64,000 bases of DNA from Planctomycetota bacterium (GTDB lineage: Bacteria > Planctomycetota > UBA1135 > UBA2386). Below are positions 15,602 to 20,101 of the stretch, in pieces. Position 1 is the stretch's first letter; each line of letters begins with the position of its first letter. The position numbers and the translations under genes were made by a program. The stretch is taken from contig OZ245838.1 of assembly GCA_965228735.1 (NCBI GenBank), positions 7,104,001 to 7,168,000 of the forward strand, written 5' to 3'. A model generated the notes under the pieces. It ran no database searches, was not told the DNA's origin, and saw only the letters and a program-made list of their open reading frames with translations.

Positions 15602-16444
15602 TCAGCGCTTCTTCGCGGCTGGCTCGGGCTCGGTCCTGGCCTTCGACATCGCGATTCGGGTGAACTCGGCGAGGCCAGGCGGCTGCTGCATTGCGGCGTG
15701 GCGGGCTGCGTCGTTCGGCAGCTTGGTAAAGAAGTCTAGGCCCCGCGCGTAGTGCAGCCTCTTGCTGCGCCAGTGCATGGCTCGCAACATCCGCGTGTGA
15801 CCCGGCGAGTCGAAGTCCGCTTCGACTATCCGGCCTTCCACGAACACCGCGTAGCCCTCCACGAGAGCGCGCGCGACCCACTTGTCCGTGGCGGTCTCGG
15901 CGTTGATCAGTCGGGTCTTTAGCCCGAAGTGCTGCTCCTGCAGAATGTGCACGAGCTCATGTACGATCGTGCTGCTCGCCGGTCCGATGCGACGCTTGGC
16001 TTCGGTGTTGCGGCGAGCTTCGAGGAACTTGAACGCGGCGACCGGGCTGAGGACGGCGCCCTCGTCGGCGGACAGAAACAGCCCCAGTGTTGTCGCGATC
16101 GTCAGGTGCGGGTCGCGCGCATCGGGGATCTGGTGCTTGACGACGGCCGCCCAGCTGTCCTCGTTCGCGACCCGCACCCGGGGTGGCTTTGCGAACTCGA
16201 GCCCGGAACGGAGTTCCACTAGGGGGACCAGTCCGGAGACTGCCTTGTCGAACTCGGCTTGCGAGAACCAGTCCTTCGTCGGGGCGACGACCGCGGGGAA
16301 CGGTGGGCGTTCGGGCTTGGCCGCCGGCGTCCCCGATGCAGTTCCTGCCCGCGGCTCGGACCTGCGTTCCTGCGCAGGCAACGTCGCCGCGAGCAATGCG
16401 GTGCTCATCGCGAGGACTGCGGTTCGGGCATTCATGGTCAGCAT
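15602..16444 (-). CDS. Secreted putative zinc metallopeptidase (gluzincin-like)
   Basis: Signal peptide; HELVH followed by LVEGYA. Confidence 0.7.
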   Translation of the reverse strand: MLTMNARTAVLAMSTALLAATLPAQERRSEPRAGTASGTPAAKPERPPFPAVVAPTKDWFSQAEFDKAVSGLVPLVELRSGLEFAKPPRVRVANEDSWAAVVKHQIPDARDPHLTIATTLGLFLSADEGAVLSPVAAFKFLEARRNTEAKRRIGPASSTIVHELVHILQEQHFGLKTRLINAETATDKWVARALVEGYAVFVEGRIVEADFDSPGHTRMLRAMHWRSKRLHYARGLDFFTKLPNDAARHAAMQQPPGLAEFTRIAMSKARTEPEPAAKKR

Positions 16445-16585: not shown

Positions 16586-17278
16586 TCACCGAGCGACGCA
16601 GTCGGCGAAGGTGGGTTCGCCGGGCAGTTCTGCGCATGCATACTCGAGGTGCACGATGCGGCGTTGCGTGTTCGTCTCGCATCGTGACGATGCGTGCAGG
16701 AGTAGTGGGCGCATCAAGAGTGCGCCGCCGGCCGGCACCGCGCTGGTCGCGGGAGTCGACGTCGCAATCGTGCTATTGATCTGGGAGCGGGACAGAACAC
16801 CGTGCCGATGGCTGCCCGGGATCACGCGCAGGGCGCCGCTCCGACTATCGGAGCCGTCGAGGTCGATGCGCACGGCGAGCACGCCCGCGAGTGCGGCGGT
16901 GGGAGGCTGCACGAACCAGGTCTCGCCCTTGCGCGACCAGGGGCCGTAGCCCGGCGCGTCGACCCGATCGCGTACGGGCACGACGAGATCCTGGTGCCAT
17001 CCGACGAGCCAGTTGGTGCGGGTGGACTTGGCGAACAGGGTGGCCCGATACGCGAAAGCCCGATCGCCGAGCGCGGATTCGGCGAGGTCGAGGACGGCCG
17101 GGTGCCGCGCGAGTCTCCGGATCCCGTCGATCCGAAGTGCGTCGCGCCGCCCCGGCCGTGGGCCGAGCCCCTCGACGAACACGTTCAGGAGGTCGGGCAG
17201 GGCTCCGGCTGGCAGCACGTTCGGGGCGATGCAGAACCCGTCGCGTTCGATGTCTGACTGCGGCTGCAAGTAGGACAC
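16586..17278 (-). CDS. Phytanoyl-CoA dioxygenase (PhyH) family protein
   Basis: WHQD, GALRVIPGSH, LLHASS and RRIVHLEY motifs. Confidence 0.9.
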   Translation of the reverse strand: MSYLQPQSDIERDGFCIAPNVLPAGALPDLLNVFVEGLGPRPGRRDALRIDGIRRLARHPAVLDLAESALGDRAFAYRATLFAKSTRTNWLVGWHQDLVVPVRDRVDAPGYGPWSRKGETWFVQPPTAALAGVLAVRIDLDGSDSRSGALRVIPGSHRHGVLSRSQINSTIATSTPATSAVPAGGALLMRPLLLHASSRCETNTQRRIVHLEYACAELPGEPTFADCVAR

Positions 17279-17325
17279 GATACTCGCGTTGCGAACGATT
17301 CGCCGCGGATCTACGCTCGCGACCC

Positions 17326-17757
17326 ATGCGTCATCGGCTCGGTCTCTTGGTCCTGCTGTTCGCGGTCGGGGGTGGATGTTCGGTGAACGACGGCGCGGCT
17401 TCGGGAGGGGCCGGGGCGCGTGGCGCGCGGCCGAGCCATCCCGAGGACATCTCGCTCGCAGAGGCGGATGCGTTGCTGGCGGGCGATGACGACGTGGTCG
17501 TGCTCGACATCCGCACCCCGCAGGAGTTCGCGTCGGGGCACATCCCCGGGGCAGTCATGCTCGACTGCAAGGCGGACGGCTTCGTCGAACAGCTCGGCAA
17601 GCTCGACCGCAGCAAGACCTACGTCGTGCATTGAGGCTCGGGCGGACGGAGCGGCCGTGCGCTGCCCACGCTTCGCGAACTCGGATTCGAAAACATCAAG
17701 CACCTGCCCGCGGGGATGAAGGGCTGGGAGAGCTCGGGGCGACCCGTCGCGAAGTAG
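17326..17757 (+). CDS. Rhodanese-domain lipoprotein, probable selenoprotein (TGA 17632-17634 = Sec)
   Basis: Lipobox-like GGGC; LDIRTPQEFASGHIPGA; YVVH-TGA-GSGGRS at the active-site Cys position. The frame continues through LGFENIKHLPAGMKGW to TAG 17755-17757. Confidence 0.85.
17640..17667 (+). promoter_or_regulatory. Candidate bacterial SECIS hairpin
   Basis: GGGCGG/CTGCCC lower stem, GCG 3' bulge, ACGG/CCGT upper stem, AGCGG loop starting 15 nt after the TGA. Confidence 0.5.
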
Positions 17758-17786
17758 CCGCCGCGAAGTAGCAACCGAGGATTCCC

Positions 17787-19337
17787 TCAGCCACGTAGGA
17801 AGGCGGCGTACTCCCGTTCGATCTTCTTCCAGGTGGCGTCGTCGCTACCGATCACCCTCTCGAGTGTCTGCGCGTGCACTTGGTCTAGGAACGCGGCCCG
17901 GTCGTCGGCGGCGGGGAGCTCCGCCGCGAACTTGGCCAGCGCCGAGAGGTAGCGCGGCAGGAAGTTCTCGAGCGCCGGGGTCCGGGTCTTGCTCAGCAGG
18001 AAGCTTACCGCGAGCTGACATTGGACGTCCCAGCGCTCCTTTCTGCGATGGAGGCGATTCGCCCAGGCAGTGAACTCCTGCCCGTCCAGCGTGAAAATCT
18101 GGCGCAGTGGCGTGAGCTTGCGCTGTCTTACGATCTCGCGGCCGTGATCGCGCGCGAAGTCGCTGCCATCGAACGTCACGTCCTGTTCGATTCGCGCGGC
18201 GTAATACAGCGTACGATGAAGGCCGTGCCGGAGCCAACTCGGCAGCGCGTGCCCGACGAGCGCGTTCTTGTCGTGCAGGTAGCCGTAGAACAGTGTCTCG
18301 CACGCCCTCCCGTAGACGATCGGATCGACTATTCCAGTATCGGTGATGACCGCTTCACCGAACCCGCTGGTGGGCGCGTGCCAATTGCAGAACGCCCGGC
18401 CCTGGTCGATCGCCCGGCAGATCCGCAGTGAGCTGCGGCGGACGTGCTCGTCGCTCAGGTCTCCCAGGAGGTCGTCGAGGTAGTCGAGGAACACTTCGAG
18501 GTCCGCGACGAACGGGTCGGGAGACGAACCACGTTGGCTGATGACGACGAGTCGTTTGGTGCGGTCGTATTCCCACGCGGGTCCCGTCTGCTTCTTGAGC
18601 GCCTTGGCCCATGCGGTCTCGAACCGCTTGCGCAGGGACTTCCGCTTCGAAGCCGGCAGCGCGAGCCAGGCAGCGAAGTGCTCCGGTTGGAGCTTCGCGC
18701 CCAGCCAGCGGTCGTCGGGGCTCGGGCGCCGTGGTCGCTGCGCGATCTGCCTGGTCTTCTCGACGACGTTCTGCCACAGCGACTCGAGTGCGGCCCGCTG
18801 GACCGTCTGTGCCGTGAGCTCGACAGCGATCGAATGGGCCTCGCGCTCGAACACACGGGCGCGGCGCGTGTAGCCGTCCCCGGGCTGTTCGATGACCCGG
18901 TAGTCGCGATACTCGCCGATCGGACTGTCCCCGGTTGCGGTCTCCTCGACGCGAAACTCCTTGCCGTTCGGCACTATGTCGGGCGTCGTCGCCTCGACGA
19001 ACTTCTCGTAGGTCGCGTGACCCGATCCTTCGGTGCTCAGGGAATACGGGTCGAGCGGGTCCGGGCTCGCGATTTCGCGGACCCGGTCGACATCGGCGGG
19101 GAGTACGATCACCCGAGCGAACGTGTGACCAAACCGTGGATCGGGTCCGTCGTCGACGAACGAGGCGGCGATCCACGGGGTGTCTTCGCGGCGGGGAACC
19201 TGCGTCCACGCTCCCGGAATCGTGATCGCGATGCCGAGCGTCGGGGCCTGCCAATCGAGCTTCTCGCGACGGCGCTGTGCACTCGCGTCCGTGACGAGAA
19301 GCCCGACGATCAGAGGCAAGACTGCGAGGTAGTTCAT
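17787..19337 (-). CDS. Secreted hypothetical protein with degenerate DUF1570/peptidase-MA-like C-terminus
   Basis: Signal peptide ending ASA-Q; LPSWLRHGL; no HExxH. Confidence 0.65.
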   Translation of the reverse strand: MNYLAVLPLIVGLLVTDASAQRRREKLDWQAPTLGIAITIPGAWTQVPRREDTPWIAASFVDDGPDPRFGHTFARVIVLPADVDRVREIASPDPLDPYSLSTEGSGHATYEKFVEATTPDIVPNGKEFRVEETATGDSPIGEYRDYRVIEQPGDGYTRRARVFEREAHSIAVELTAQTVQRAALESLWQNVVEKTRQIAQRPRRPSPDDRWLGAKLQPEHFAAWLALPASKRKSLRKRFETAWAKALKKQTGPAWEYDRTKRLVVISQRGSSPDPFVADLEVFLDYLDDLLGDLSDEHVRRSSLRICRAIDQGRAFCNWHAPTSGFGEAVITDTGIVDPIVYGRACETLFYGYLHDKNALVGHALPSWLRHGLHRTLYYAARIEQDVTFDGSDFARDHGREIVRQRKLTPLRQIFTLDGQEFTAWANRLHRRKERWDVQCQLAVSFLLSKTRTPALENFLPRYLSALAKFAAELPAADDRAAFLDQVHAQTLERVIGSDDATWKKIEREYAAFLRG

Positions 19338-19453
19338 GGGGATCCTGTTGTGCCGAGTGCGATTCGGTTGGCCCGATGTCGTTCGCCGATTCCAGCCGCA
19401 GAGTAATGGAGCGCGTCGATTCGTGCATGCCGCACTCGTTGAGGCCGGCGGGC

Positions 19454-20101
19454 TCATCGCCGTTCGAGGCGCAGCAGAACGTTGTTCTTCGGCATTCGAC
19501 GCACGGTCGGGGGCGTGAGTCCGGCGCGAGTCGCGATGGCCGTCAATTCCGTGAGCGTGCGGACCCCGTACGCGGAATCCCGTTCTCGCAGCTCGCGATC
19601 AAACTCCACGTTGCCATCAGGGCGCGGCTCGCCGTCCAGAAAGACCGCCCCGTAGACGAGCAGCACGCCGCCGCGAACGAGATGGGCCGCGGCGCCGTGA
19701 AACAACGCTTCGGTCGTCGCGATCGGCGCGATGTGCATCACGTTGCTCGCGAACACGGCGTCGAGCGATGCCGGTTCGCACGGCCAGGGTTCGCCGAGCG
19801 TCAGCGGCTTCGGTGGGCGAAGGTTGTCGAGTGCCGCGTGCTCCACCCACGCTCGAATCGACGCGAGCGCTTCCGGATCGCGCTCCGTTGGCTGCCACGT
19901 CCAGCCGGGCAGTCGCGTTGCAGCGAGCACCGCGTGCTCGCCCGTTCCGGCTGCGATCTCGAGACAACGACCCCGTTCCGGAAGTTCGTCGAGCAGGGCG
20001 GCGACGATGTCGCCGCGGTTGCGACCGGCCGACGGCGAGTAGCGGCGACCGTCCGGCTCCCCGTCGAGGGGCTCCATGCGAACGGGTGGGGTGTTGCTCA
20101 T
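19454..20101 (-). CDS. DUF938 family SAM-dependent methyltransferase-like protein
   Basis: SPSAGRN, LEIAAGTGEH, WQPTE, NVMHI, FDRELR and MPKNN motifs. Confidence 0.88.
   Translation of the reverse strand: MSNTPPVRMEPLDGEPDGRRYSPSAGRNRGDIVAALLDELPERGRCLEIAAGTGEHAVLAATRLPGWTWQPTERDPEALASIRAWVEHAALDNLRPPKPLTLGEPWPCEPASLDAVFASNVMHIAPIATTEALFHGAAAHLVRGGVLLVYGAVFLDGEPRPDGNVEFDRELRERDSAYGVRTLTELTAIATRAGLTPPTVRRMPKNNVLLRLERR

Follow-up and report, generated by a model that had tools for sequence, protein, structure and literature searches.

We identified a gene that we describe, with good confidence, as encoding a single-domain rhodanese whose catalytic UGA codon very probably specifies selenocysteine (Sec) and whose product is predicted to be exported and lipid-anchored. 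The gene is located in a 64-kb stretch of planctomycete DNA (the window), taken from a genome that consists of one contig of 7.19 Mb. A sequence-only reading of the window had pointed to a TGA codon in place of the catalytic cysteine and had interpreted the product as a membrane-tethered seleno-sulfurtransferase. Comparison with related genomes indicates that this is very probably a genuine and conserved selenoprotein gene. The earlier observation is confirmed and its interpretation is supported, and the RNA hairpin that follows the TGA is corrected here.

Reading frame, rhodanese domain and conservation of the TGA codon

The coding sequence (17326-17757, plus strand) consists of 143 codons and a TAG stop. 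It starts with ATG at 17326, ends with TAG at 17755-17757, and contains a single in-frame TGA, codon 103 (17632-17634), in the context YVVH-TGA-GSGGRS, exactly as had been read from the sequence. The reading frame continues for 40 codons 3' of the TGA, and its tail reads ..LRELGFENIKHLPAGMKGWESSGRPVAK / ...LGFENIKHLPAGMKGWESSGRPVAK. The protein begins with MRHRLGLLVLLFAVGGGC-S, and a public gene call that is 84% identical to it (P0003) has the near-identical N-terminus MRHRLGLLVLLFGVGGGCS.

The read-through product matches the Pfam Rhodanese profile (PF00581) with 69.5 bits (cut-off 22.2; E-value 3.6e-19). This match covers profile positions 3-101 of 102 and runs across the TGA. It places the rhodanese domain at residues 45-136 (17458-17733, plus strand). 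An AlphaFold2 model of residues 39-143, based on 77 aligned sequences, has a mean pLDDT of 95.7 and a pTM of 0.87 and adopts the alpha/beta fold of rhodaneses. A Foldseek comparison of the model with the PDB gave 149 matches at E<=0.001, and the best TM score, 0.90, was to the rhodanese domain of 3tp9. A family profile likewise matches the solved rhodaneses 1yt8 (2.1e-32) and 6mxv (6.8e-30). The claim that the codons after the TGA complete a rhodanese fold is thus upheld by the Pfam match across the TGA and by the model. If it stopped at residue 102, the product would be missing its catalytic loop together with the final helix-strand-helix.

The predicted Sec opens the active-site loop, U-G-S-G-G-R-S (17632-17652, plus strand), as judged from the sequence and the alignment. 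The glycine, arginine and serine of this loop (G68, R70 and S71 in the numbering of the domain alignment) are invariant across the 77 aligned sequences. Rhodaneses that act as sulfurtransferases have a six-residue loop, whereas the Cdc25/Acr2 phosphatases carry a seven-residue C-X5-R loop; Bordo and Bork reportedly set out this loop-length rule in 2002. The loop encoded here is of the six-residue sulfurtransferase type.

Relatives of the protein were collected from 5.8 billion public proteins at E<=1e-10, which returned 98 sequences. Fifty-eight are full length, with Cys at the catalytic position in 57 and a variant loop in one. The other 40 are gene calls of about 90 residues that end in ...TYV[MV]H just before the TGA, without the catalytic loop; where these cut calls are named at all, the names are 'rhodanese-like domain-containing protein', 'phage shock protein E' and similar. 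We also searched 91 genomes of the source genome's family at a threshold of E<=1e-18 and found orthologs in 21. The catalytic codon is TGA in 16 of these and TGC in the remaining five. The TGA orthologs are spread over four genera, although 12 of them come from one genus; because they are related and mostly from that genus, the 16 are not independent observations. The TGA column, which predicts Sec at the catalytic position, aligns with the catalytic Cys of the five family orthologs and of the 57 database relatives. Among the first 44 loci listed in the search for relatives in other phyla, 41 have Cys or no match to the motif pattern, and the three with TGA are members of the source genome's family. 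One Sec ortholog (L058, at G058:C174) comes from a record titled as a gammaproteobacterial metagenome-assembled genome (Luminiphilus sp.), while the genome search groups it with the family; the public label or the binning of that genome may be wrong.

Across 14 pairs with the window's gene, dN/dS for the 40 codons downstream of the TGA ranges from 0.15 to 0.47. The 60 codons upstream give a similar range, from 0.13 to 0.68. These ratios show purifying selection acting on the stretch that follows the TGA. A tree of the 77 domains (105 columns) is poorly resolved. The Sec rows require four changes on the best tree, and a single origin of these rows is recovered in 22% of bootstrap trees.

The region 17200-17900 (701 bases) shows no differences among contigs from four runs of four different studies. 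These matching runs may stem from the same strain, so they show the reproducibility of the sequence and no more. An assembly slip at the TGA is ruled out by these identical contigs taken together with the presence of the TGA in 15 other genomes. The idea that the gene is a pseudogene, or that the TGA is a sequencing error, draws on nothing beyond the bare fact of an in-frame stop, and we give it a negligible chance: it is contradicted by the same TGA in 16 genomes of four genera, by identical contigs from separate runs, and by dN/dS well below one on both sides of the codon. Another contig, roughly 20 kb long and of much greater depth, occurs in runs X6 and X8 and has in common with the gene two exact 18-19 nt stretches (17593-17610 and 17647-17665, the latter over the hairpin described below). 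These stretches may reflect chance in G+C-rich DNA or a related element of another organism.

Candidate SECIS element and selenocysteine machinery

A conserved hairpin core, GCGGC-CGUGC-GCUGC (17651-17665, plus strand), starts 16 nt after the UGA and is a candidate bacterial SECIS element. The pattern GCRGC-N5-GCUGC is found at +20 to +34 in all 16 TGA orthologs and at that place in none of the five Cys orthologs. When the 60 nt around the TGA are aligned, all five core pairs are intact in every TGA ortholog. The loop of five nucleotides is CGUGC, AGGUU or AGGUC, and it begins 22 nt after the UGA; the spacing rule for a UGA and its SECIS loop is 16-37 nt. The second loop position is G in 16 of 16 TGA orthologs. 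The conservation of apical-loop guanosines is described as a mark of bacterial SECIS elements in a figure legend of the Sargasso Sea study (PMC1088965). The core therefore has a SECIS-type arrangement, that is, a hairpin shortly after the UGA with a G in its apical loop.

Codon choice in the TGA orthologs follows the stem. Serines of the 5' arm are always encoded by AGC where Ser is kept, and the second is replaced by GGC (Gly) in two genomes. The Leu codon of the stem is CTG in all 16. In the codon after it, within the 3' arm, the third position stays G while the residue changes between Ala, Leu and Ser. In the Gly and Arg codons just upstream of the stem, third positions vary freely.

The core may be extended (17648-17667, plus strand) by pairing of G17648 and G17649 with C17667 and C17666, leaving A17650 bulged; these pairs can form in 10-11 of 15 distinct sequences. 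A longer bulged hairpin (17640-17667, plus strand), which the single sequence adopts at minimum energy, is an alternative that competes for the same 3' arm. The surrounding DNA is 69% G+C, and the long fold is no better than shuffled sequences (z = +1.74; 197 of 200 shuffles equally or more stable). Across the orthologs 83% of its cells are paired, with 91% in the lower helix and 70% in the upper helix. The sequence-only reading had placed a bulged hairpin after the TGA. A hairpin is indeed present and is retained in the TGA forms only, but the conserved element is the 5-bp core at 17651-17665 rather than the long fold. None of the core pairs has changed on both sides; four of the five are invariant and one varies one-sidedly (A-U to G-U). 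In a covariation analysis of the core, shuffles equalled the observed values in 500 of 500 cases. The pairs hardly vary, so covariation counts are silent on both the core hairpin and the long fold. A search of the whole 64-kb window against Rfam at gathering thresholds gave no match, and a search of 17600-17720 at E<=10 gave only chance matches to unrelated families.

The genes required for Sec insertion are present in the source genome, with matches above curated cut-offs to selA (454 bits), selB (337 bits), selD (367 bits) and tRNA-Sec (76.6 bits). A tRNA scan of the 64-kb window itself found none. The selA gene is directly followed by selD (locus L010, G000:C1:121367-123694). This selD has an in-frame TGA in a GSG-U-AAK motif and, 17 nt downstream, a 9-bp hairpin with the loop CGGGC, which suggests that selenophosphate synthetase is itself a selenoprotein in this organism. 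Within the family, selA occurs in 84 of 91 genomes and in 31 of the 31 high-quality ones, so the use of Sec looks family-wide and not confined to a single strain. The sel machinery is also present in genomes with the Cys form of the rhodanese.

We observed a second candidate selenoprotein gene at 61843-60929 on the minus strand of the window. It would encode a 305-residue secreted thioredoxin-like protein with a TGA at 61651-61649, forming a U-G-M-C motif in the context YGRQA-U-GMCRAL. This protein scores 19.8 bits against Thioredoxin_7, short of the required 27. Its UGA is followed, 12 nt on, by a hairpin with a stem of 5-6 bp rich in G+C and a CGUGG/GUG loop, and the TGA at 60928-60926 looks like the true stop. 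The hairpin of the rhodanese gene had been said to share the architecture of this one. The two do have in common a short G+C stem and a CGUG(C/G) loop, and the likeness is limited to these features. Similar loops thus follow the UGA in the rhodanese gene, in selD (CGGGC) and in the thioredoxin-like gene (CGUGG).

The UGA of the rhodanese gene might not encode Sec at all, being instead a stop that yields a 102-residue fragment, or a codon at which a normal tRNA places Trp or Cys. Public gene callers do stop there in 40 of the 98 relatives, and the hairpin is without covariation. Against this, the 40 downstream codons remain in frame, show purifying selection and complete the domain, whereas the fragment would be missing two elements of the fold as well as the catalytic loop. 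The UGA aligns with the catalytic Cys, the hairpin occurs in TGA forms only, and the genome has the Sec machinery. Nearby genes also appear to use TGA as a normal stop, one instance being the minus-strand codon at 60928-60926. We consider a meaning other than Sec very unlikely.

Predicted export and proposed activity

The protein is predicted to carry a lipoprotein signal peptide, read from the sequence as residues 1-17 (17326-17376, plus strand) and followed by a lipobox cysteine, Cys18 (17377-17379, plus strand), as the predicted site of lipidation and cleavage. According to the PROSITE PS51257 rule, such a signal has a basic N-terminus, a hydrophobic core and a lipobox Cys within the first 15-35 residues. 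The arrangement MRHR-LGLLVLLFAV-GGG-C18 conforms to this pattern. The lipobox of the window protein, V-G-G-G-C, is atypical, and its lipoprotein status is therefore a prediction. Most orthologs have a canonical lipobox such as L-A-A-C, V-A-G-C or L-S-G-C. By eye, a signal peptide and lipobox Cys are seen in 21 of 21 orthologs, and a regular expression finds them in 38 of the 40 public gene calls that are cut at the TGA. The genome also has lgt (179 bits) and lspA (86.7 bits), both above the cut-off. These observations support, at the level of prediction, the earlier proposal of an exported and membrane-tethered lipoprotein.

The gene is isolated, with a gene of the opposite strand on each side: one encodes a PhyH-family protein and the other is an unassigned 556-aa ORF. 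Two minus-strand ORFs next to the gene, 17787-19457 (556 residues) and 15602-16444 (280 residues), have signal-like N-termini, and neither has a Pfam match at E<=0.001. No neighbour is conserved across genera. Only within one genus (g12) do orthologs share neighbours, namely a class II tRNA synthetase, a DUF1648 protein and an SNF symporter, all unrelated to sulfur; the neighbourhood therefore provides no functional lead. A promoter scan of 17100-17900 found no sigma-70-like site.

From the fold and the type of loop we infer that the protein is a seleno-sulfurtransferase. The six-residue loop and its invariant Gly, Arg and Ser make a carrier of sulfane sulfur, with a Se-S intermediate on Sec103, the most likely mechanism. 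SelB carrying Sec-tRNA(Sec) would bind the hairpin at 17651-17665 and insert Sec103. The precursor would then be exported through the Sec secretion pathway; Lgt would attach lipid to Cys18 and LspA would cleave the signal peptide, which would leave the lipidated rhodanese domain outside the cytoplasm. In that location, Sec103 in its selenolate form would take sulfane sulfur from thiosulfate, a persulfide or a polysulfide as the Se-S intermediate, and this sulfur would be handed to a thiol or other acceptor. Selenium may be of use in such an oxidising compartment through its higher reactivity and the ease with which it recovers once oxidised.

Such a protein would presumably work, like PspE of Escherichia coli, as an extracytoplasmic carrier of sulfur. 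PspE and GlpE of E. coli are thiosulfate sulfurtransferases that likewise have one rhodanese domain, roughly 100 residues long, whose one catalytic residue sits in a six-residue loop, and PspE is periplasmic, thus also outside the cytoplasm as predicted here. The family profile matches solved structures of the PspE/GlpE type (2jtq, 8.2e-12; 1gmx, 8.2e-13). However, PspE and GlpE use Cys and are soluble, whereas the window protein is predicted to have Sec and a lipid anchor. Membership in either equivalog family was rejected, with scores of 23.1 against 102 for PspE and 35.7 against 102 for GlpE.

A second cysteine, Cys81 (17566-17568, plus strand), is typical of the Sec forms according to alignment column counts. 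Position 81, which is 22 residues before the Sec, is Cys in nine of 15 Sec forms and in 36 of the 40 public calls cut at the TGA. Only one of 62 Cys forms has Cys there; the others are mainly aromatic (Phe in 40, Tyr in 19). Sec103 and Cys81 could form a selenenylsulfide pair, or the association could equally reflect inheritance within one clade. A redox pair of this kind would make the protein an exported thiol oxidoreductase or a reductase of the peroxide or selenite type and not a sulfur carrier. Among the bacterial selenoproteins catalogued so far, the majority are redox enzymes that have a U/C pair, and three of the Sec forms without Cys81 (L050, L053 and L054) have a Cys elsewhere in the domain. 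However, the mature domain of three other Sec forms without Cys81 (L047, L052 and L056) is devoid of any other Cys, which means that not every Sec form has a resolving Cys. Simple inheritance within one clade may account for the association of Cys81 with Sec, and the loop has the six-residue length of sulfurtransferases. We regard a redox-pair enzyme as unlikely. It seems similarly doubtful that the switch from Cys to Sec came with the replacement of the aromatic residue by Cys81, and that the protein is now an extracytoplasmic selenenylsulfide reductase of peroxide, disulfide, selenite or polysulfide, no longer a plain sulfur carrier. A sulfane-sulfur carrier remains our preferred reading of the gene.

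Relation to known selenoprotein rhodaneses

Rhodaneses containing Sec have been described before, as the sequence-only reading stated; they have been catalogued as predicted families since 2005 in the Sargasso Sea study (PMC1088965). Together with the Global Ocean Sampling study of 2008 (GOS, PMC2398784), this work first listed Sec rhodanese families, and the families of rhodanese type presented in the two studies have three, eight and six sequences. A 2022 review, in its listing of selenoproteins, includes Sulfurtransferase COG0607 forms, and a table in a 2026 review (PMC13188914) gives five rhodanese-like selenoprotein forms, among which forms 2 and 4 belong to PF00581 and have a UxxG motif.

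Forms 2 and 4 are the closest to the gene described here. As the table presents them, they share with it the PF00581 domain, Sec at the position of the catalytic Cys, the motif U-x-x-G (here U-G-S-G) and many Cys homologues, and, like the window protein, they are known from prediction only. The window protein fits the description of these forms (exemplars MBM9537886.1 and MCY3690685.1) in its domain and motif. The Sargasso Sea family, as listed in that study, is filed under COG2897, the two-domain SseA type, whereas the window protein has a single domain. Form 3, rhodanese_LYCAU (NF041203, CxU), resembles the window protein in being small, in having one rhodanese domain and in carrying Sec in the active-site region. 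The window protein is not a member: it scores 35.7 bits against a cut-off of 115 and reads V-V-H-U, with Val two residues before the Sec and no CxU. Form 5, TsoB (NF045694), a rhodanese/DsbD fusion with a UxxxxU motif, was rejected as well (19.9 bits against 805; single domain with one U).

The words 'lipoprotein' and 'planctomycet' have no occurrences in the available portion of PMC13188914. In a study of planctomycete genomes that includes a selenoprotein list (PMC4807772), neither the main text nor supplementary files 2-12, among them the candidate table s020, mention a rhodanese. The gene is thus a member of an unannotated new clade of a known, still purely predicted type of selenoprotein and not a new kind of system.

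The 40 of 98 public relatives that end at the TGA indicate that this Sec clade is common in public data and is systematically cut short. Reading the TGA as Sec corrects an annotation error that is widespread in these data, and it adds a clade from the Planctomycetota to the predicted Sec rhodaneses. The Sec and Cys forms of the protein also make up a clean natural pair within one bacterial family, which could help to explain why an extracytoplasmic sulfur-transfer enzyme would have selenium in place of sulfur.
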